NCBI GenBank assembly: GCA_007693605.1
Contig: REDG01000035.1
Location: forward strand, 1 to 64,000
Direction of reading: 5' to 3'
Length of the DNA stretch: 64,000 bases
Source: Bradymonadales bacterium
Lineage (GTDB): Bacteria > Bdellovibrionota > UBA2394
Each line of letters opens with the position of its first letter. The stretch's first letter is position 1. Both the position numbers and the translations under genes were made by a program. Under the pieces are notes generated by a model. The model ran no database searches, was not told the origin of the DNA, and was given only the letters and a program-made list of their open reading frames with translations. Below are positions 34,303 to 46,598 of this stretch, piece by piece.

Positions 34303-34797
34303 ATGCTCAAAAGCTCTGAAATGCATCTGGTCTTGGTCGCGCCAAGAATTCCTGCGAATGTAGCGAGTGTGGCTCGAACGGCGATGGCCTTGGGGGCCAA
34401 GCTTCATCTGGTGGGGCCCTTTGGCTTTCGCTTAGACGAAAAGTCTATGGCTCGGGCATCGGTGGGCTACTTTAAAGAAGTAGACTACCAGACCTATATT
34501 GACTTCGACGACTTCTGGAAGTCGGCCCCTGTCGCGAGCTATATTTTTGTCACGAAACGGGGTGATTTTGACTACTCCGAGATCTCGTATTCACCGCCCC
34601 TTTGTTTGGTTTTTGGAAACGAAGAAGAGGGAGTGCCCCCAGAGTTTTGGGAAGTCCCAGGAGCCCAGAAATTTGTGTCTTGTCGGATTCCCACGGTCTC
34701 AGTACGCTGTTTAAACCTAGCGGTTGCGGTCGGAATACTGGGATTTGAGGTTCAAAGACAGTGGAGGCTGCAGAGAAAAATTGAGGGGGTAGGGTGA
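34303..34797 (+). CDS. trmL: tRNA (cytidine/uridine-34-2'-O)-methyltransferase, SPOUT family
   Basis: PRIPANVASVART, LHLVGPFGF, LVFGNEEEG, RCLNLA. Confidence 0.88.
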   Translation: MLKSSEMHLVLVAPRIPANVASVARTAMALGAKLHLVGPFGFRLDEKSMARASVGYFKEVDYQTYIDFDDFWKSAPVASYIFVTKRGDFDYSEISYSPPLCLVFGNEEEGVPPEFWEVPGAQKFVSCRIPTVSVRCLNLAVAVGILGFEVQRQWRLQRKIEGVG

Positions 34798-37700
34798 AGC
34801 TAAAACGCTTGTTAATGCAGGGATTCAAGTCCTTCGCAGACAAAACCGAGCTGGTTTTTGATGAGCAAATTGTTGGAGTGGTGGGCCCAAACGGCTGCGG
34901 AAAGAGCAATATTGTAGACGCCATTCGCTGGGCGATGGGCGAGCAATCCGCCAAGGGGCTTCGTGGCAAAGAGATGTCTGATGTCATTTTCGCCGGGACG
35001 CCGGCCCGAAAGGCTTCGGGTCTAGCGGAAGTCAGTTTGGTCTTTGATAACTCTGACCATCAGGCCCCTGCGCCTTATACGGATTGCGCAGAAATCATGA
35101 TTACTCGCCGGCTTTATCGAAGCGGAGAAAGTGACTACCTGATCAATCTGGTGACCGTGCGCTTGAAAGATATTCATGACCTTTTTCTGGGCACGGGCTC
35201 TTCGGCCAAAGCCTATTCCATCGTGGCCCAAGGCAAGGTAGACGAAGTGGTTTTGGCAAAACCCGAAGACCGCCGTTTCTTGATCGAAGAAGCCGCCGGC
35301 ATCGCGAAGTACAAAATCCGAAAGCAGTCGGCCGAGAGAAAAATGGAGGCCACCCAGCAAAATCTAGATCGCGTGAACGATCTCTTAAGGGAGCTGGAGA
35401 AGAATTCAAAGAACCTTGAGAGGCAGGTCGAAAAAGCGGAGAAGTTTCGCTCTCTGCAGTCTGAGTTGAAAGCCAAGGAGTGTGATTGGATTGCGGCTCG
35501 ATTGAAGCGATTGGATGAGTCAGCCGTCGCCAATCAAGAGGCCTTGCAGTCTGCTCAAGATGCTCTCACCGAAAAGCAGTCTCGGCTTGCTGAAATTGAA
35601 GCGAAGATCGAGACTCTACGGCTTGAGTCCTTGCAGTACGAGAAGATCACCGCAGAGGATTATGAGTCTTTGATGTCTACGAAAGATCAACTTGCTCGCT
35701 TGGATACCGAGAGGGAGTTGGCCCAACAGAAGATGGAGCTTTTGAACAATCAAATCGCCGAAAGGCGATCAGATGTCGCAAGGTTGGGATCAAAATTTGA
35801 GAATCAAGAGGGCTCAAGGCAGCAGCTTCAGGCAGAGCTAGAGAGACGACAGCAAGAGAGGCAGCAGGCCGATCAGAAGCTTCGAGAGCTTCAGGCGGCA
35901 AGGGATCAGGCAGAGGATCGACTCAAAGACACTCAGGCAAACCTTGAGCGGATTTCTGAGGTCTTACAGGCTCATCGCTCTGAGCTGGCGGTAGAGAGCC
36001 AGCAATTGAAGATGAAAAGGGCTGAGCTTGTAGACATTGAGCTCTATCGGGCGGGTTTGGAGTCTCGCCTAGAGGTAGAGCGGCAAGAGATCAAAAGCCT
36101 AGAGATTGAAGACCACAGCTTTAGCGAAGACTTGCAGACAAAGCTTGATGAACTTCGAGTAAAAAAAGAAGAAGAGCAAGATCTCAGCGGGCGACGGGAG
36201 CAGCTTCTCAAAGAGCGAGAGAGTTTGCTAGCGGAGCTTTCTCGGCTCGATTCGGGCTGCATCGAGAAAGAGGCCGCTATTAAAAGCCTTAAGCAGTTAG
36301 AGCAACATGCTTTGGGTTACGATGGCATGGCTTTAGAGCTCAAGAAGCAAACGGGTCTGGAGCTCCTCATGGATCAAGTCAAGTTTCGACCAGAGGCTCA
36401 GGATCTGGGCGAGACCTTGATTTATCATCTCGGCCAGTTCTTTACAGAGAGTCTTGCCGATCAAGCGCTCGAGGCTCGGTGGACGAGTCTTCTATTGAAA
36501 GCGGGCTCCAATCGCCCGGAGCGCAGTCTGAGCTCTCTGCTGGACGAGTCGTCGAGTGAGCAGGTCAAAGATTTATTCTCTGCCATTGAGCTGGTGGACG
36601 AAATCGATTGGGAGTCGCCCACGGAGTTCTGCCAGTTAGATCGAAAAGGCGGCTGGCGAGCTTCTTTGGGGGCGAGTCTGGAGTTGAGAAGTTTTGGTAA
36701 GGTTTCTAGAGAGCAGAGCCCCTTCTCTCGCCATCATGAGATCATTCGCTCTGAGCAGGAGCTTTCAGAACTAAGACAAGAGCTGGGAGCGATGCAGGCG
36801 CGAGTGGAAGACAATCTTCAAAGGCAAGAAGAGCTTCGCAAGAACCTAGAGAAGACTCAATTGGCGCGACAAGAAATTGAACAGAAGCTTGAAGCGCTTC
36901 GTCAGGATCGAGAGCTGATTTTACAGCAGAAAGCCGGAAAGAATGCTCTTGCAGAAGAGCTTTCTGAAGAGATTCAAAAGACCGAGGAAAAGATTGCGAA
37001 GAAGAACGGCGAGATTCTCAGTCTGCCTGAGTTGAAGAGCACAGAGTCGATGGAGTTGGAGCTGGCGGAGGCTCGGCAAAGACTGGCTGAGGCGAAGAAT
37101 CAACTCGATGAAAGAGACGCCGATTGGGTGGAGTACCGAATCGAATGTGGAGCTTTGCAAGAGAGGCTAGAAAGAATTCAGCAGCAGTTTGTTTCGCTCG
37201 ATATGGCTCAGTCCGAGTACAAGCACAACCAAGGTCTTTACCAAAAGGATATTGAATTGTGGGAGCAAGAGATTCACTCGCTTCGACAGAATGTCAAAGA
37301 CTGGGCTGAAAGGGGCGCTCAAGAGCGAGAGAAGGTCCAATCGCTTGAGAAGGGCCTCGCGAAGTCTAAGGATCAAGTCGCAAACTTTCGTCGTGATTTG
37401 GAGGAGCTAGAGAAGTCTCGGCGAGAGTGGGCTTCATCAAAAGAGGAGTTGGTCGAGAGTCTTCAAGCGCTGGAGCTTGAAAAACAGCGCTTTAGCCTTG
37501 AGCTTGAGGAGATCAATCGCAGTCTTGAGGAGCGCTATGAGATCTCGGCTCAACAGCTTTTGTCCTCTCTTTCAGAGGAAGACTTAGAGAGCTTGGCGAG
37601 TTCGTCCTTGGAAGAGATGGCCCTAGAGGTGAAGGCTTTGAGGGAGCGCTTGTCGAAGTTCGGAGATGTGAATCTTGTCGCCCTCACCGAATATGAAGAG

Positions 37701-38288
37701 ATGAAGTCTCGCGTGGAGTTCATGAACACTCAAAGAGAGGACTTGTTAGGCACCTTAAGCTCACTTCAGAGCATCATTGATCGGATCAATCGAATCTCTG
37801 AGTTTCGCTTTCGAGAGACTTTCAATGCGATTAACCATAATTTTCAGCTCCTCTTTCCGAAACTTTTCGGAGGGGGTAAGGCTTTTATGCGATTGACTGA
37901 TGAGTCGCAGCTCTTAGAGACCGGCGTAGAGATTTTTGCAGAGCCTCCTGGAAAGAAGATCCAGGCGATGTCTCTGTTAAGTGGAGGGGAGAAGGCCATG
38001 ACGAGCATTAGTCTGCTCTTTTCTCTCTTTGCCTATCGCCCCTCTTCATTTTGTATTCTGGACGAGGTCGACGCGCCCTTGGACGACATCAACACGAGGC
38101 GCTACAACGAGATCATTCGAGAAATGTCCTCTCTTTCTCAGTTTATCGTGGTGACGCACAACAAGCGAACCATGGAAGCCGCATCCACCCTCTTTGGGGT
38201 GACTATGCAAGAGCCTGGCTGTTCTCGAATTGTTGGGGTCAACCTCACCGAAGCCAAGGCGTTCACCACGGCAGCGGCTGAGGCTTAA
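34794..38288 (+). CDS. smc: Chromosome segregation protein SMC
   Basis: GFKSF, GPNGCGKSN Walker A, long coiled coils, LSGGEK signature, CILDEVDAPLD, VTHN. Confidence 0.96.
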   Translation: MKLKRLLMQGFKSFADKTELVFDEQIVGVVGPNGCGKSNIVDAIRWAMGEQSAKGLRGKEMSDVIFAGTPARKASGLAEVSLVFDNSDHQAPAPYTDCAEIMITRRLYRSGESDYLINLVTVRLKDIHDLFLGTGSSAKAYSIVAQGKVDEVVLAKPEDRRFLIEEAAGIAKYKIRKQSAERKMEATQQNLDRVNDLLRELEKNSKNLERQVEKAEKFRSLQSELKAKECDWIAARLKRLDESAVANQEALQSAQDALTEKQSRLAEIEAKIETLRLESLQYEKITAEDYESLMSTKDQLARLDTERELAQQKMELLNNQIAERRSDVARLGSKFENQEGSRQQLQAELERRQQERQQADQKLRELQAARDQAEDRLKDTQANLERISEVLQAHRSELAVESQQLKMKRAELVDIELYRAGLESRLEVERQEIKSLEIEDHSFSEDLQTKLDELRVKKEEEQDLSGRREQLLKERESLLAELSRLDSGCIEKEAAIKSLKQLEQHALGYDGMALELKKQTGLELLMDQVKFRPEAQDLGETLIYHLGQFFTESLADQALEARWTSLLLKAGSNRPERSLSSLLDESSSEQVKDLFSAIELVDEIDWESPTEFCQLDRKGGWRASLGASLELRSFGKVSREQSPFSRHHEIIRSEQELSELRQELGAMQARVEDNLQRQEELRKNLEKTQLARQEIEQKLEALRQDRELILQQKAGKNALAEELSEEIQKTEEKIAKKNGEILSLPELKSTESMELELAEARQRLAEAKNQLDERDADWVEYRIECGALQERLERIQQQFVSLDMAQSEYKHNQGLYQKDIELWEQEIHSLRQNVKDWAERGAQEREKVQSLEKGLAKSKDQVANFRRDLEELEKSRREWASSKEELVESLQALELEKQRFSLELEEINRSLEERYEISAQQLLSSLSEEDLESLASSSLEEMALEVKALRERLSKFGDVNLVALTEYEEMKSRVEFMNTQREDLLGTLSSLQSIIDRINRISEFRFRETFNAINHNFQLLFPKLFGGGKAFMRLTDESQLLETGVEIFAEPPGKKIQAMSLLSGGEKAMTSISLLFSLFAYRPSSFCILDEVDAPLDDINTRRYNEIIREMSSLSQFIVVTHNKRTMEAASTLFGVTMQEPGCSRIVGVNLTEAKAFTTAAAEA

Positions 38289-38418
38289 GTTCGCTCCCTT
38301 TTCGGGACTGTCGCCAAACTCTGGATTCGGGAGTGGCGTTAATGGCCCATCTGCTTCGGCGGCTGCTTCGCTCCCTTTTTGTGATGATCCTCTGCTGAAA
38401 TTTCGATAGAAGGTCTTC

Positions 38419-39522
38419 ATGTCTGATTTTTCATGGTCGCCGGAGTGGATTTTTGGCCTGACGCTCATTTTGTTGATGCTCTATGGTCTGGGGCTTGTCT
38501 ACAGAAAGTGGAAGTATGGAAACATCGACCGCTTTACGAGTCGCAAGAAGAAGGCCCCAGTCTCAGAGGATTCAGAGCTGGAGCGTTCGGATTCTGAATC
38601 GAGAGCCGGTGTTCGTCCGCCCTCTGCCGATCAGGAGCTGAAGCCCACAAAAAAGAGACTTCGACTGTCCAAAGCCATTGCGGATTGGTTTCCACTTCTT
38701 CAGAAGGACTCTAAAGACCCCAAAGAGTGGGAGCGAGTGATGATTTCTTCTGATCTTGGACCAAAACTGACGAAAGACTTGATTGCTGAGCTTCAAGGCC
38801 TTGAGGAAGAGCCTAAGGTTTTCTTGAAAAGACGATTGAAGGCTTGGCTTGATATCGAGACCCCCAAAAGGCCCGAAGACTCTTCGAGTCGTCCCTGGAC
38901 GGTCTTTGTGATCGGCGTGAATGGAGCGGGCAAGACGACCAGCATCGTAAAGTTAGCTCATTTCTATCGAAATCAGGGAAAATCGGTGGCAGTAATCGCC
39001 GCCGACACCTTTCGAAAGGCGGCGGTAGAGCAGCTTCAACGAGCCTGCGATCGTCATCAGATACCATGCTTTCAGGTGGTTCGAGAAGGAAGCACCGAGG
39101 GGGCCGATCCGGCCTCCGTTGTTTTCGACGGCCTAAAAAAGTTTCGAGAAGTCGATATCGTGTTGGTCGATACCAGCGGGCGGCTTCATAATAAAAAGAA
39201 CCTGATGGAAGAGTTAAAAAAGATGCAGAGGGTCGCCGAAAAGGCCTTGAACTCACCGCCTCAAGAGAAGCTTTTGGTGATTGATGCCTCTTTGGGGCAG
39301 AACGCGGTGCAGCAAGCTGAAAGTTTTCATGAAGCGGTGGGGGTCACGGGGATCATGTTGACCAAGCTAGATGGTTTGAGTCGGGGCGGCAGTGTTTTTC
39401 AGATGGTTCAGAGTCTGAGAATTCCCGTTCGATTTCTCGGAACCGGGGAGTCGGTTGAAGATCTGAGGGAATTTCGGGCAGATGAATTTGTCGATGAAAT
39501 GTTTGACCAGACTGGCACTTAA
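38419..39522 (+). CDS. ftsY: SRP receptor FtsY with N-terminal TM helix
   Basis: GVNGAGKTT, DTFRKAA, DTSGR, TKLDG; follows smc. Confidence 0.95.
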   Translation: MSDFSWSPEWIFGLTLILLMLYGLGLVYRKWKYGNIDRFTSRKKKAPVSEDSELERSDSESRAGVRPPSADQELKPTKKRLRLSKAIADWFPLLQKDSKDPKEWERVMISSDLGPKLTKDLIAELQGLEEEPKVFLKRRLKAWLDIETPKRPEDSSSRPWTVFVIGVNGAGKTTSIVKLAHFYRNQGKSVAVIAADTFRKAAVEQLQRACDRHQIPCFQVVREGSTEGADPASVVFDGLKKFREVDIVLVDTSGRLHNKKNLMEELKKMQRVAEKALNSPPQEKLLVIDASLGQNAVQQAESFHEAVGVTGIMLTKLDGLSRGGSVFQMVQSLRIPVRFLGTGESVEDLREFRADEFVDEMFDQTGT

Positions 39523-39581
39523 TACTAAGGCTTGAAACCAGTTTGTCGTAATCAAGGAACTACCAGAGGAGATAGAGAGAA

Positions 39582-39758
39582 ATGTCAGATAGCTTAATTA
39601 TTCAATCGAAGATACGGGATGTATTTAAAGAGGCGGGATGCAACACAGGAAGTGATGCGATTGATTCCCTTAATCAAGAGGTGGCTCGAATTGTGAAGCG
39701 CGCAGTCGAGAGAACAAAGGAGAACGGTCGAAAAACCGTAAAATCTTCAGATATTTAG
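39582..39758 (+). CDS. Bacterial histone-fold protein, Bd0055-like (58 aa; absent from ORF track)
   Basis: MSDSLIIQSKIRDVFKEAGCNTGSDAIDSLNQEVARIVKRAVERTKENGRKTVKSSDI; AGGAG RBS; RKTV-x3-D histone-fold motif; terminator downstream. Confidence 0.88.
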   Translation: MSDSLIIQSKIRDVFKEAGCNTGSDAIDSLNQEVARIVKRAVERTKENGRKTVKSSDI

Positions 39759-39792
39759 CCCATTTTCGCTAAATTTTTCCGAAAACGAGTAT

Positions 39793-39824
39793 AAAAAAAG
39801 GGCCTCCCAAAGGAGGCCCTTTTT
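39793..39824. terminator. Bidirectional intrinsic terminator
   Basis: A7-GGGCCTCC-CAAA-GGAGGCCC-T5 between convergent genes. Confidence 0.9.
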
Positions 39825-39843
39825 GCAAACCCAAGAAGAGAGC

Positions 39844-39966
39844 TTACTTTCTCTTTTTCTTAGTAGCTTTTCGCTTGGTTGCTTTTCGCTTAGAAGCTTT
39901 TCGCTTCGTTGCTTTCTTCTTAGTAGCTTTTTTCTTAGTAGCTTTTCTTTTTCTTCTAGCGGCCAT
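39844..39966 (-). CDS. Small highly basic histone H1-tail/protamine-like protein (40 aa; absent from ORF track)
   Basis: MAARRKRKATKKKATKKKATKRKASKRKATKRKATKKKRK; AAGGAGA RBS; DNA repeats vary mostly synonymously; ends near the terminator. Confidence 0.82.
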   Translation of the reverse strand: MAARRKRKATKKKATKKKATKRKASKRKATKRKATKKKRK

Positions 39967-39987
39967 GTTTTCTCCTTCGTCGATTTT

Positions 39988-40047
39988 GAATTAGGTCAGG
40001 GGCTTTGTCCTCAAGTAACGAAGAGGATAAATCCACTGATCCAATTC
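39988..40047. other. Long imperfect hairpin upstream of the basic-protein gene
   Basis: GAATTAGGTCAGGGGCTTTGTCCTC / GAGGATAAATCCACTGATCCAATTC, about 25-bp imperfect stem. Confidence 0.55.
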
Positions 40048-40102
40048 TGTTTATCAAGAATCGAAAAACAACAACAGCGTTTTTCTGCTCTTGACACTTA
40101 CT

Positions 40103-40133
40103 AACATTTTAAAATGTTTTTCTTTTGTTGCAA
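40103..40133 (-). promoter_or_regulatory. Candidate promoter of the basic-protein gene with an overlapping palindrome
   Basis: Minus strand TTGCAA-16-TAAAAT in AT-rich DNA; perfect palindrome AACATTTTAAAATGTT at 40103-40118. Confidence 0.4.
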
Positions 40134-40231
40134 TACCTATTTCTTAATTCTCTGCGAATTTTGCAAAAAAATTGCCTCAAAGTTTCAATTCGGACATGAA
40201 ACAAAGTCTATTGAGTACATTCTCGTGCAGC

Positions 40232-41143
40232 TTATCGGATTTCGATTCTTCGATCGGGATTGTTTCGACTAGTTCGGCGAGCTTTTGGCTTGGGCAAGCT
40301 TCTCATGACTTCGATCGATTGCTGAAAGTTTCGAGGCAGTTGCCGCATGTTTGCCGGAGTTGGGGAAAAGTAAATGCTCTCACCGCTCTCTAGTGTGAGT
40401 TCGATGTATTGATCGGTAGTTTGAGAGATCGAACGAACCTCTTGAGGTCGAAACCGCTGTCCGGCCACTTCATACTCCTGTTGAATCTGCGCTCTTTTGC
40501 CCTCTTGGATTTCTTTTGACACATATTGAACGCCCAAAAAGAGGTTGAGAACGAGTAGAGCGACCAAGGCGCCAAACTTCTGAAATCGCTCCCGTCGGCT
40601 CTGGGCCTGCTCCCACTTCAACAGGCGGATCTCCTCTAAGCGATCGATGCTGGCCTGTTTCGTCTTGGCTTGAACCGCGACGCCAGACGGCAGTGCCGAG
40701 CGAACAAAAGACTCTAAGCGCGACCGAATGTCTTGAGTGAGGTTCACAAACTCTACCCCAAGTCCATTAGGAGCGACCCGACACACCCGAGCCTTCAGTT
40801 GAAAGTCAAAGCTTTCTCCATTTGCCGGATTCGGAACGCTGAAATGAATGCCGATGAGTTCGCCCACCCGCCTCTTCTCGTCAGTTTTGACAAAAAGGCC
40901 CCCTAAAGAGATGTTCTCAATATAGTGCTTGGCGAATTGTGCATCGTGCGAAAAACGAAGGCTAATCTCGTTCTTTCTAAGCCCGGCCCGTGAAAAGCTT
41001 CTTCGCTCGTCCGGACTGGGATGTTCAGGCTGTGTGTCTGAATCTAAAGACTGCGCCTTCGAATCTGCTTCAGCCGTTGATGGCTCTGACTTGTCGGTCC
41101 CTTCCGTATCGAAGAGGCTTTCAATTCGGTCTTTAAAATCCAT
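40232..41143 (-). CDS. PilZ-domain membrane protein
   Basis: RRSFSR (RxxxR) and ENISLGG (NxSxGG), GLGVEF; one TM then a soluble domain. Confidence 0.8.
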   Translation of the reverse strand: MDFKDRIESLFDTEGTDKSEPSTAEADSKAQSLDSDTQPEHPSPDERRSFSRAGLRKNEISLRFSHDAQFAKHYIENISLGGLFVKTDEKRRVGELIGIHFSVPNPANGESFDFQLKARVCRVAPNGLGVEFVNLTQDIRSRLESFVRSALPSGVAVQAKTKQASIDRLEEIRLLKWEQAQSRRERFQKFGALVALLVLNLFLGVQYVSKEIQEGKRAQIQQEYEVAGQRFRPQEVRSISQTTDQYIELTLESGESIYFSPTPANMRQLPRNFQQSIEVMRSLPKPKARRTSRNNPDRRIEIR

Positions 41144-42872: not shown

Positions 42873-45800
42873 ATGAAGGTTTTTCAGATGCGGGGGGAAA
42901 CCGCAGACGAAGCCAGAGAGAGGCTGTCTGCGGACCTTGGAATTGATAAGGATCAGCTAAGGTTCGTTCGAGAAAAAAACAAAGAGTTCTCGTTCGAGGC
43001 TTCTGTCTGCCCTCCCATCTTGGATATTGAAGTTTCCAAAGACAAGTTGAAGGCTAGAATTCGGCGAATTCAGTTGCCTCAAGGCGATTCTGCTCCGAAG
43101 TTAACCACCGACTTTGTGCTCGAACAGCTCAAGAAGAAGGGCATTCAGTTTGGCATCAAGACGGAAGAGATTACGGCCGCTCTCTTTAAGATCTCTTCAG
43201 ATCCGAATTTTAACGACACCAAACCACTGAGCATTCTGGTCGCAGAGGGGGAGAGCCCTTCGTCGGCCCAAGGCGGACGACCGCAATGGGTGCTCGACCT
43301 GAAAAAGTTCGAAGGCGGAAAGTTTGCCTTAGCCAATAAAGATGAAGTGGTGGCGAAAGCCCCTACGGCCGTTCCCGGTCGTGAAGGTAAAACGGTGACC
43401 GGCGAGCCGATCCCTTTTGATTTTGAAGAGTCCTTTCGATTGCCCATCGGAAAGGGAATCGGAGTTCGCCGTGTGAAAGGTCATACCGAGTACTTTACTG
43501 AATCTTTCGGCCGCGTCTTCGTAGATGACGGCACTCGAGTTCGGCTCGATGTGGATATCAAAGACCAGAAGGATGGCCTAGAGGCGGTCGTGGAATTAGT
43601 CGGGCCAAAGACATTCTCAGGCAAGAGCGTCTCAGCTCAGGACATTCTTGAAGCCGCCTCTGCACACGGAGTTTCAAAAGGGCTGCTCAGTCTTGAAGAA
43701 GTCGAGAGACAGATTCGAGCCGTCAAGAAATGGCCTGCTCGTATTGTATTGGCGAAGGGAAAAGATCCGGTTGATGGGCAGCTTGGAGATCTGAAAGTTC
43801 ATTACAAAACTCCTCACTCTGAAAAGCCCCTCGATGTTGAAAGAGCCAAGTTGGGCATTGTGTTTCCGGGAGAAATCATCGCCAGCATCCAATTTGCCCA
43901 CCCTCCTCAAGACGGGTTTACCGTCTTTGGCGAAGTTCTTCGGGGGCGGCAATGCAACGAGCAACCCATCTATCCGGGAAAGAATGTGAAGCGGGTTCGG
44001 CTAGAGACTCACGAGGAGCTTCATGCCACGGCTTACGGTCAGGTCAAGATTGTGGAGGATCGAATTCATGTTGAAAACATCGTCAGAGTTTCGCAAGACG
44101 CCATGGAGGCCACTCTAGACCTGTTTCCTCAACAGCCTCTCAGGGTTGAAGATATTCAGAATCTTCTTCGAGATAAAGATGTCCTGGCGGGTTACGAGAA
44201 AGAGGATATCGAGAAAAAGCTACAGTTGGTTGCCAACGGGCAACGCCGCGAGCCTAAGCTGGTATTGGCAAAGGCGCGCCCTGTCATTCCCGGAAAGAGC
44301 GCCAAAATCCGCTACTATTTTCGCCCATCAGAGATGAAGTCGAAGGGCATTCTCATCAAATCTCAGCCGAGAGACTATTTTGCCGCCCCCGGGGATCTTT
44401 TGTTGGTCAAATTTCTTCCCGAAGAGGCCGTTGAAGGATTCAATCTCTATCGAGAAAAGATTCCTGTGCCCGCCGAGATGAAGTCCGCCGACATTCAGAT
44501 TAAAGTGGGCGATCTGATTCGAGAAGAGTTGAGGGGGAAAGATGGAGACCCCAATGATCTGCCGCGAATAGAGTTTCGGGCCGAAAGTTTTGGGGTTGTT
44601 TCGTGGAAGAACAAAGAACTCAGCTTGAAGTCGGTGATCGAGATTCCCGAGTCTGAAGACTTTGTTCAGCTTCGCTTGCCCCAGAAGAGTGATTTTGGGC
44701 GCGCCATTAGCTTTGAACTGGTGAAGAAGGTGGCAGAAGAAGAGGGAGTGCGAGTAGAGCTAGATCGAGAGGCCATTGAGAGGTGTTTGCGGACTGCGCG
44801 AGCGAAGCCTACTGATTTGGTTCCCGTGGAAATTGCCCGCTCTCAGCCCGCCAAAAACGGGGAAAACGCCAAGATCGAGTACTTTGTGAAAATCAACGGC
44901 GAGAGTGTCGAAAAGTTTGTCAGCCGCGAACTCCCCACTCCTGAAGAGATTCTTCAGGCTGATTGTGTGAGGCCGGGCGATGTGATCGCCATTAAAACTC
45001 CGGCAGGAACCGGAGAAGACGGAAAGAGTGTTTTTGGGCGCCGCATTGTGGCCGAGCGAGGGGTGGACGAGCCGTGGATGCTTGGTCGAGGACTCGAGAG
45101 ATCGAGTGATGATCGCTCTTTGGTGGTGCAGACTCAGGCTCCTGCCTTTGTTTTTGTCGAAGACGGACGATTGGTGGCCAGGTCGACTTTAGAAATTGCT
45201 CCGGACAAAATGTCAGCATCGATGACGATCTATCCTTCTTCTAACCCCAGGTTTCAGGCCAGGGAAGAGAGGGTCATGACGATGATCCAAGCGGAGGGGA
45301 TTCAGGCGGGGCTTCAGATCGAACGAATTCGCGAGGCCATTCAGAGCTGTTTAACCGATCAAGCGCCTCAAACATTTGAGGTGGCCGTTGGGCAAGCTCC
45401 AGAAGTGGGAACCGAAACCAGCTATGAGTTAGCGGTAGACACCGACCGATCTCAGCTTCGCTCTGACGGTAGCGTGGATCACAAGGCGGCCAGCGTCTTT
45501 TTGCAGGTTCGCAAGGGGCAGCTGCTCTTGCTGAAAAGGCCCGCAACTCGAGGAGCGGACGGATTCAATATTCTTGATCAAAAAATCCCTGGCATCATGG
45601 GCAAAGACTATGAGGTGGCAGCCGGAGAGGGCGTGAAAGTCTCAGATTCTGGGCTGGAATATTATTCGACCCGAGACGGAATTCTTGAATTCACTGGAAA
45701 GCGAATTCAAGTGATTGAAGGTCTCATGGTCAACGGAGATGTGGACTACTCGACGGGGAATATTGATTCGGATCAGGCGCGAGTCATCATTCGAGGTTCC

Positions 45801-46598
45801 GTCTTGCCGGGCTTTGAGCTTCGCTCAAAATCTGATGTGAAGGTCGAGAAGGTGGCCGAGGCCTGCATCATCGAAGCGGGCGGAGAGCTTTCCGTTTCGG
45901 GGGGAATCGTGGGTAAAGACAAGGCCCATATCAGTGCCAAGAAGAAGCTGGAGTGTCTCTATATTAACAGTGGAGCGACGGTGGAATGCCATGGGGACAT
46001 TGTCTCTCGAAACGAAATACTCAATAGTCAGATTCGCTCTGGCGGAAGAGTCCTCTGTGTAGAGGGTGCAGGAGCGGTGTCTGGGGGCGAGATTTGGAGT
46101 CAAAAGGGGGTCGAAGCCAAGGTTTTTGGGGCCCAAGGCTCTGAGAGCAAAACCCATATACACCTGGGCCTCAACTTTATGGAGCTCCAAGCGGCTCTTA
46201 AACGGATCGAAGATGAGGGCTTAAAGGCCAAAGAGGAGGATCTTCGATCTGAGATGGCCGAAATGGATAAGGAGCTTAAGGAGATCTATGAAAAGATTCC
46301 CGAAGCTTCGGAGAAAAGTCCGGAAGACGCGGCTGAACTACAGGCTCAATACAAAGATCTCTACGAGAACCGTAAGCTCAAAGAAGAGAAGCTAGGAACC
46401 GTAGAACGGCAAAAGGCCGTCATTCTGAAGCATGTTCAAAAGGCTAAAGATTTCAAAGTCATCGCCAGAGAGATGATTCACCCGGGAGTCGTCTTCCATC
46501 ACGAAGGCGTCGAATGGGTGATCCGGGAGCCTATGCGAGCGGTCGAGATTTCCTGGAGTGAGGCTTCTAAGAATTTTGTCATGCGAAAAGCCCCTTGA
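42873..46598 (+). CDS. Very long DUF342/FapA-family protein with tandem N-terminal modules
   Basis: C-terminal GDVDYSTGNID...IRGSVLPGF region, GSVDHK; about five repeated V(S)xDxxxA modules; Jag_N-like start. Confidence 0.8.
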   Translation: MKVFQMRGETADEARERLSADLGIDKDQLRFVREKNKEFSFEASVCPPILDIEVSKDKLKARIRRIQLPQGDSAPKLTTDFVLEQLKKKGIQFGIKTEEITAALFKISSDPNFNDTKPLSILVAEGESPSSAQGGRPQWVLDLKKFEGGKFALANKDEVVAKAPTAVPGREGKTVTGEPIPFDFEESFRLPIGKGIGVRRVKGHTEYFTESFGRVFVDDGTRVRLDVDIKDQKDGLEAVVELVGPKTFSGKSVSAQDILEAASAHGVSKGLLSLEEVERQIRAVKKWPARIVLAKGKDPVDGQLGDLKVHYKTPHSEKPLDVERAKLGIVFPGEIIASIQFAHPPQDGFTVFGEVLRGRQCNEQPIYPGKNVKRVRLETHEELHATAYGQVKIVEDRIHVENIVRVSQDAMEATLDLFPQQPLRVEDIQNLLRDKDVLAGYEKEDIEKKLQLVANGQRREPKLVLAKARPVIPGKSAKIRYYFRPSEMKSKGILIKSQPRDYFAAPGDLLLVKFLPEEAVEGFNLYREKIPVPAEMKSADIQIKVGDLIREELRGKDGDPNDLPRIEFRAESFGVVSWKNKELSLKSVIEIPESEDFVQLRLPQKSDFGRAISFELVKKVAEEEGVRVELDREAIERCLRTARAKPTDLVPVEIARSQPAKNGENAKIEYFVKINGESVEKFVSRELPTPEEILQADCVRPGDVIAIKTPAGTGEDGKSVFGRRIVAERGVDEPWMLGRGLERSSDDRSLVVQTQAPAFVFVEDGRLVARSTLEIAPDKMSASMTIYPSSNPRFQAREERVMTMIQAEGIQAGLQIERIREAIQSCLTDQAPQTFEVAVGQAPEVGTETSYELAVDTDRSQLRSDGSVDHKAASVFLQVRKGQLLLLKRPATRGADGFNILDQKIPGIMGKDYEVAAGEGVKVSDSGLEYYSTRDGILEFTGKRIQVIEGLMVNGDVDYSTGNIDSDQARVIIRGSVLPGFELRSKSDVKVEKVAEACIIEAGGELSVSGGIVGKDKAHISAKKKLECLYINSGATVECHGDIVSRNEILNSQIRSGGRVLCVEGAGAVSGGEIWSQKGVEAKVFGAQGSESKTHIHLGLNFMELQAALKRIEDEGLKAKEEDLRSEMAEMDKELKEIYEKIPEASEKSPEDAAELQAQYKDLYENRKLKEEKLGTVERQKAVILKHVQKAKDFKVIAREMIHPGVVFHHEGVEWVIREPMRAVEISWSEASKNFVMRKAP

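Follow-up and report, generated by a model that had tools for sequence, protein, structure and literature searches.

Do a chromosome-folding protein, a small histone and a very basic micro-protein that are encoded side by side belong to one dedicated chromatin system? The question is raised by contig REDG01000035.1 of a Bradymonadales bacterium (GenBank assembly GCA_007693605.1), whose positions 1 to 64,000 make up the 64,000-nucleotide window analysed here. The window carries smc, ftsY and a gene for a 58-residue histone on the plus strand, followed by a convergent minus-strand gene for a 40-residue lysine- and arginine-rich peptide (the Lys gene), and this gene order is confirmed. All coordinates are whole-window positions, and the host family is the family of uncultured predatory-type bacteria to which the source genome belongs.

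The original prediction read the locus as a dedicated system of core histone, linker-like protein and condensin. This holds only in part, since smc-ftsY occurs without the histone, the peptide occurs without the histone, and scpA and scpB lie elsewhere. We give about an even chance to a locus made up of three genuine units, each built separately, that probably act independently on the nucleoid, and their co-location is likely the result of gene-order inheritance at the level of the family. The locus is a family-restricted variant of the known arrangement of a histone near smc and does not in itself establish a new system; the adjoining micro-gene is a member of a widespread and apparently undescribed class of polylysine peptides. 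It is this class, rather than the locus, that is the under-described element here.

The histone and its probable promoter

The histone is of the tail-less face-to-face (FtF), HLp-like type. In FtF histones an arginine and an asparagine join two dimers into a ring, and dimers of the Bd0055 type lack both (PMC11390915). The spacing of R44 and N48 equals that of the interface residues R41 and N45 of the FtF histone D4GZE0; these two residues, together with R50, T52 and D57 of the RxTxxxxD motif, are invariant across 49 aligned close relatives. The best sequence matches among solved structures are HLp of Leptospira (E 2.7e-8) and Bd0055 (E 3.5e-7), and the structure model (pLDDT 94) finds HLp as its top Foldseek matches (TM 0.91-0.94). 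Fold alone cannot separate the two classes, as the model also aligns to Bd0055 with a TM of ~0.9, and the FtF assignment is made because the diagnostic R44 and N48 are present. The same two residues rule out a Bd0055/HBb dimer histone, the type to which the original prediction had pointed. Nucleosomal core or HMf-type histones have a full-length third helix and a long second helix that form the four-helix bundle; membership in this group is likewise ruled out by the third helix, shrunk to one turn, by the TM of 0.64 to HMfB and by an NF043032 score of 28.9 bits (cut-off 50). The protein is tail-less, with a net charge of +2, compared with 0 to +1 in the family orthologues; tailed bacterial FtF histones in the comparison set mostly carry ~+7 to +11, and archaeal tail-less ones ~+1 to +5. 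HLp forms stable tetramers that wrap ~60 bp of DNA (PMC12701072), and by analogy a ring-shaped tetramer wrapping ~60 bp is predicted for the histone. A histone tree (114 rows, 58 columns) with unsettled bootstrap values was used only for the monophyly of the family and for its sister group.

The histone open reading frame (ORF) begins 59 nt past the ftsY stop codon, and the coordinates and the terminator scan agree with the claim that smc, ftsY and histone share one strand with no terminator-like site between ftsY and the histone. The histone nevertheless likely has its own promoter at the end of ftsY. A -35-like hexamer lies in the last ftsY codons, with a -10-like hexamer 17 or 18 nt on, in 10 of 11 family sequences. 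In the source genome the -10 box falls just past the ftsY stop, and the pair scores 7/12. Internal initiation is frequent in Bacteriovorax operons (PMC10634947). Judged from these alignments, a separate histone promoter is favoured, not proven.

The source genome, which is 90% complete, encodes a second tail-less FtF histone (G000:C49:5438-5611; 57 aa, 64% identical). This copy is convergent on a response-regulator-like gene and has its own hairpin, with no smc or Lys gene nearby on contig C49. The sole HU/IHF-family match (G000:C30:67386-67658) shares the contig of the first histone, at a distance of 27.6 kb.

The polylysine micro-gene and its class

The Lys gene is a real gene by its conserved promoter, Shine-Dalgarno (SD) site, terminator and coding-type substitution pattern, and the claim that both small genes are genuine is borne out by their conservation in family relatives. 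The peptide contains 18 lysines, 7 arginines and no acidic residue. Its ORF is the only one in the 2.19-Mb genome that combines an SD-like site, a length of 12-60 aa and at least 55% K+R; this uniqueness by the filter, together with conservation in relatives, argues that it is not a chance ORF. In nine family orthologues read over their whole length, the peptide has 17-31 residues. Over 11 shared codons in 10 sequences there are 193 synonymous and 36 non-synonymous pairwise differences, with 216 at third positions; the pairs are not independent, and one extra lysine codon was skipped in one sequence. Alignment of 10 of 10 family leaders brings the -35/-10 boxes and an extended SD block into register, while the intervening sequence varies. 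Shuffle tests of the promoter on single sequences are weak (15-101 of 300 shuffles are equally good), and the case for it rests on the aligned position across genomes.

The convergent histone and Lys ORFs are separated by 85 nt. Within this gap a hairpin with an 8-bp G+C-rich stem between A7 and T5 (-24.7 kcal/mol folded within the gap) is terminator-like and fits the common bidirectional terminator that had been claimed, although it is absent from the list of the consensus terminator scan. Because a similar terminator follows the Lys gene even where no histone adjoins, the Lys cassette is self-contained. Rfam gives zero matches in the window, and the Lys-gene leader corresponds to no listed RNA family. 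Upstream of the Lys gene, a long leader hairpin whose outer arms match is common to three family members (window 39990-40050, minus strand; L004, L011), and other members have different leader hairpins, again with no Rfam match.

The peptide has no match in Pfam or NCBIfam, ribosomal families included, and a protein search with all 40 residues returned four candidates, none significant, its low complexity making such a search uninformative. Linker histone H1 is defined by a globular winged-helix domain, and a 40-aa low-complexity peptide without one is not a linker histone. The description of the product as H1-like fails on this ground, on the lengths of 17-31 aa in relatives, and on its belonging to a stand-alone class that does not travel with histones. 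A tiny basic ribosomal protein (bS22, eL41, bTHX) was rejected for lack of a family match and because the length of the class, 11 to >100 aa through pentamer expansion, is not fixed. The tandem lysine-rich pentamers in variable number (six here, fewer in relatives) are a trait of Hc2 and BpH1; membership in that group was rejected, as 40 aa compares with ~150-240 aa expected and there is no match to Pfam HC2. Fission of a tailed histone gene was judged unlikely because the genes lie on opposite strands, the Lys gene has its own promoter, and the peptide class is older than the host family. Two RNA runs of the same study gave 0 reads on 37400-40400; a ribosomal-protein control region drew only partial reads, none at 99% or above, and the organism was not shown to be present in these runs.

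On sequence comparison, the peptide is a member of a widespread class of stand-alone polylysine peptides whose genes do not accompany histone genes. An estimated ~460 metagenome stretches contain its C-terminal motif, and 120 of them were analysed. In 62 of these the ORF has a good start signal and does not exceed 45 aa, and many such ORFs encode only 12-13 aa. A histone is present in 3 of the 120, all three family-like, with a profile that recovers 110 of 110 control loci; among the short ORFs with at least 1 kb downstream it is present in 1 of 28. Within the phylum, 39 of 251 genomes gave a match to the motif, compared with 3 for the reversed control. The 26 non-family phylum loci comprise 12 free-standing peptides of 20-51 aa, 8 lysine-rich proteins of 100-245 aa and 6 incidental matches, and 0 of 26 has a histone within 1.5 kb. 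Three genomes allow the distance to be measured, and there 130, 138 and 540 kb separate the peptide gene from the closest histone. One family includes four genomes (75-93% complete) in which the peptide gene is present and a profile search finds no histone; the profile detected the histone in 4 of 5 genomes in a companion test. The 97 flanking ORFs from 52 chosen loci encode miscellaneous enzymes and unknowns. Of nine other members scanned, one, of 113 aa, has a weak HC2 score (E 6.6e-5, below cut-off).

Two further observations concern the class. At locus L031, from another family, a 48-aa Lys gene (1514-1660) with the same promoter boxes lies just upstream of an ORF (1808-2092) that looks Fis-like by its sequence pattern and would be another nucleoid-protein neighbour. 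At L194, L198, L201, L206, L304 and L305 the Lys micro-peptides start with a single cysteine or a pair, a feature that might serve metal binding or cross-linking.

Gene order in and beyond the host family

An orthologous histone is found in 11 of 14 family genomes. Of the three without it, one has a contig that stops just past ftsY at an SD-like site, and the other two have no ftsY match (87% and 76% complete). The gene ftsY precedes the histone in 9 of the 11; in a tenth the contig begins or stops within ftsY so that only its final codons remain, and the eleventh is cut. In one genome the Lys gene lies 1.7 kb from the histone, behind an inserted DEAD-box helicase gene (named from motifs). All four genes are unbroken in 6 of the 11, cut by contig ends in two and interrupted by insertions in three. 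Read by eye, the histone-Lys gaps contain one shared hairpin in 6 of 10 cases and separate hairpins in 4 of 10. The flanks are retained as well: in 8 of 8 loci of sufficient length, trmL and a gene for a 529-aa protein precede smc, and pilZ lies beyond the Lys gene in 8 of 10. Since these neighbours are conserved about equally, the chromatin genes are kept no better than what surrounds them. Conserved synteny of smc, ftsY, histone and convergent basic-protein gene, as foreseen in the original prediction, is therefore only half borne out: the order is kept across the family, but it was not found outside, and unrelated flanks are kept too.

The smc product contains Walker A, signature and Walker B motifs and matches the full-length bacterial SMC model; scpA and scpB are present in the genome, together on another contig (C44). 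The Pfam hinge domain (PF06470) is undetected in 4 of 4 host-family SMCs and detected in 3 of 3 from other families. The hinge region itself (window ~36200-36800, residues 480-660) may be strongly diverged. The earlier reading of smc and ftsY as a unit is right about their adjacency but had overlooked an intervening repeat, which has 92 blastn matches across the genome, itself included, and ends in a terminator-like hairpin and T run (38358-38372, plus strand). For this reason read-through from smc to ftsY is uncertain in the source genome. Copies of this palindromic REP-like repeat often form inverted pairs ~100-150 nt apart. Inserted genes separate smc from ftsY in 3 of 13 family genomes.

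The smc-ftsY pair is, by its distribution, an older one that exists without the histone. The two genes are adjacent in 8 genomes from three families other than the host family, and the five of these loci that were read contain neither histone nor Lys gene within 1.5 kb. In B. subtilis the two genes form part of an rnc-smc-ftsY operon. Strain names of the form 'smc ftsY::ermB' occur in PMC8357415. In several genomes that are 94-99% complete (families f4, f7, f9, f13 and f14), FtsY/Ffh gave no match at E 1e-30, family models not being applied, and the signal recognition particle pathway may have been lost or may have diverged strongly there.

A histone and an smc match are present together in 29 non-family genomes, and in none of them do the two adjoin; in many of these genomes the genes lie on different contigs, where distances are lower bounds only. 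Four have them within 10 kb. Three are all the genomes of one family (3/3; L151-L153), with a ZZ/dimer-like histone 3.1-3.4 kb upstream of smc, and the fourth has a tailed FtF histone at 8.7 kb. In L151-L153 two opposite-strand glycosyltransferase-like genes lie between histone and smc. A further 74 histone loci from named genomes (L047-L120; mostly archaeal, with flanks up to 7 kb and often shorter) show no smc, ftsY or adjoining Lys micro-gene, and the four sister-group tail-less histones among them likewise have no such neighbour. Nor was a general association of ftsY with the Lys gene seen: 18 non-family ftsY loci contain no Lys micro-gene by the filter used, and among the 120 metagenome loci returned, ftsY occurs only in family-like ones.

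Table 1. Features of the locus, in whole-window positions.
Feature	Position	Strand	Basis
smc, chromosome segregation protein SMC, 1164 aa	34794..38288	+	TIGR02168 883 bits (cut-off 567)
REP-like genome-wide repeat between smc and ftsY	38300..38380	.	blastn matches in genome; terminal hairpin
ftsY, SRP (signal recognition particle) receptor GTPase, 367 aa	38419..39522	+	TIGR00064 266 bits (cut-off 261)
Predicted sigma-70-type promoter for histone	39503..39532	+	inferred; score 7/12 (weak) in source genome
Tail-less face-to-face alpha3 histone, 58 aa, net charge +2	39582..39758	+	R44, N48, R50, T52, D57
Bidirectional intrinsic-terminator-like hairpin, likely part of Lys-gene cassette	39793..39824	.	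fold and conservation
Polylysine micro-gene, 40 aa, net charge +25	39844..39966	-	six A-[T/S]-K-[K/R]-K pentamers
Lys-gene leader: sequence-variable hairpins and conserved extended SD block	39967..40100	-	family alignment
Sigma-70-type promoter of Lys gene: TTGCAA, 16 nt, TAAAAT	40106..40133	-	both boxes align in 10 family sequences

Competing explanations and known systems

If the three units act independently, SMC, identified by its gene, would work with the separately encoded ScpA and ScpB in long-range folding, as is established for such proteins. The histone, probably transcribed from its own promoter at the end of ftsY, would wrap short stretches of ~60 bp as an FtF ring tetramer, as HLp suggests. 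The Lys gene, which its conservation marks as a self-contained cassette of promoter, leader, SD, ORF and terminator, would supply a peptide that, to judge from its composition and from Hc2/BpH1, would likely bind nucleic acid by charge alone, neutralise phosphates and condense DNA, acting like a genetically encoded polyamine or an H1 tail. The histone gene probably settled between ftsY and the Lys cassette in the family ancestor, and in some family members the histone likely uses the terminator of the cassette. Several points weigh against independence, or against the chromatin role that this reading gives to the peptide. The Lys gene is directly convergent on the histone in 10 of 11 family genomes (one cut by a contig end). 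Of the 120 metagenome loci, 40 have flanks of just 300 nt. The proposed histone -10 box overlaps the ftsY stop codon in 7 sequences and is clear of it in 3. Histones lie near smc more often than rough chance would have it (3.1-3.4 kb, 8.7 kb, adjacent in Leptospira); two of ten families have one less than 10 kb from smc, against a rough expectation of 1-2% each, which argues against pure chance. The products could be partners even where synteny is missing, and DNA binding by the peptide is a prediction, as similar lysine-rich repeats bind RNA (PMC12818456) or polyphosphate granules (PMC9239181).

This last point leads to a reading that keeps independence but has the peptide bind mainly RNA, ribosomes or polyphosphate, so that it has no chromatin role and the micro-gene is unrelated to its neighbours; this is possible, though on the unlikely side. 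It would fit the occurrence of the class beside miscellaneous genes in genomes without a detected histone, the preference of chlamydial Hc2 for RNA (PMC2848022), the binding of mRNA by the KPAA repeats of PhaF (PMC12818456) and the localisation of AlgP to polyphosphate granules (PMC9239181). The class shows pentamer expansion, unlike what would be expected of a ribosomal protein in a fixed pocket, and neither the missing ribosomal family match nor the weak HC2 score of the 113-aa member speaks for it. In favour of this reading, many members, at 12-13 aa, have the size of tiny basic ribosomal peptides.

It is improbable, in our estimate, that the peptide is the detached basic tail or linker of the tail-less histone, placed on the DNA between or over FtF tetramers, with the genes held together by selection. 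The job of a tailed FtF histone would then, just as improbably, be shared between two genes, one for a tail-less core of near-neutral charge and one for a free polylysine tail or linker of 17-40 aa supplied in trans. The histone does lack a tail, the N-terminus of the peptide resembles FtF tails, and the convergent arrangement and the hairpin shared in some genomes would fit such a pair. Against this, sister-group and archaeal tail-less FtF histones have no such neighbour gene, the peptide also occurs in genomes whose histones are dimer-type or tailed, or where there are none, the opposite strands and separate promoters make it unlikely that a single gene was divided, and the two genes have separate terminators in four genomes and an inserted helicase gene between them in one. 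If it were true, bacteria would possess a separately regulated core-plus-linker chromatin encoded beside smc. Lower still we place a co-regulated pair of smc and histone of the kind proposed for Leptospira, in which ftsY and the Lys gene would be incidental. The terminator-free ftsY-histone interval and the nearness of histones to smc in two other families of the phylum and in Leptospira would suit it; yet the nearby histones in the phylum are of other types with unrelated or divergent genes between, smc and ftsY are split by insertions in some family genomes and by the repeat with its terminator-like hairpin here, and the timing differs in B. bacteriovorus, with an early growth peak for smc and a late one for bd0055 (bioRxiv 2025.09.24.678257). 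The independent action of three units remains the reading that we prefer.

The claim that no described locus combines these components holds only in part. An FtF histone gene adjoining smc, with cooperation of the two proposed, is published for Leptospira (PMC12701072). No open-access paper was found that describes the peptide motif, a histone adjoined by such a gene, or unannotated lysine-rich polycationic small proteins, and no passage on smc-histone gene order was found in the main texts of PMC10627809 and PMC11390915. The closest known system is HLp of Leptospira perolatii (PMC12701072; PDB 9QT0/9QT1), the best match in sequence and fold, with the FtF residues and a gene that adjoins smc. 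It differs in its N-terminal extension, which the histone here lacks, and in its neighbours, which are map and a DUF350 gene in place of ftsY and the Lys micro-gene; the source genome, moreover, also holds an HU/IHF-family gene. Bd0055/HBb (PMC10627809, PMC11390915) shares the alpha3 fold and the phylum but forms dimers without the tetramer-interface residues present here. The SMC resembles that of bacterial Smc-ScpAB in its TIGR02168 score, in the presence of scpA and scpB and in an smc-ftsY linkage also seen in other families, and differs in its undetected Pfam hinge.

For the peptide, Chlamydia Hc2 and Bordetella BpH1 (PMC2848022) offer lysine-rich pentamers in varying number and a lack of acidic residues, but they are ~150-237 aa long with two basic residues per pentamer, compared with 17-40 aa and three per pentamer here. 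Eukaryotic H1 has a similarly Lys/Ala-rich C-terminal tail, beside the globular domain that the peptide lacks. Protamines are also small and very basic, whereas the peptide is lysine-rich and most of its relatives have no arginine. As an overlooked gene found throughout the phylum, the polylysine micro-gene offers an inexpensive and testable candidate for a missing factor, and the host family supplies a natural pair for such work in a 6.4-kDa histone and a 2-5-kDa peptide.

Elsewhere in the window, positions 42873-46598 encode a FapA-like protein of 1241 aa with five FapA_N repeats, which is far longer than usual.

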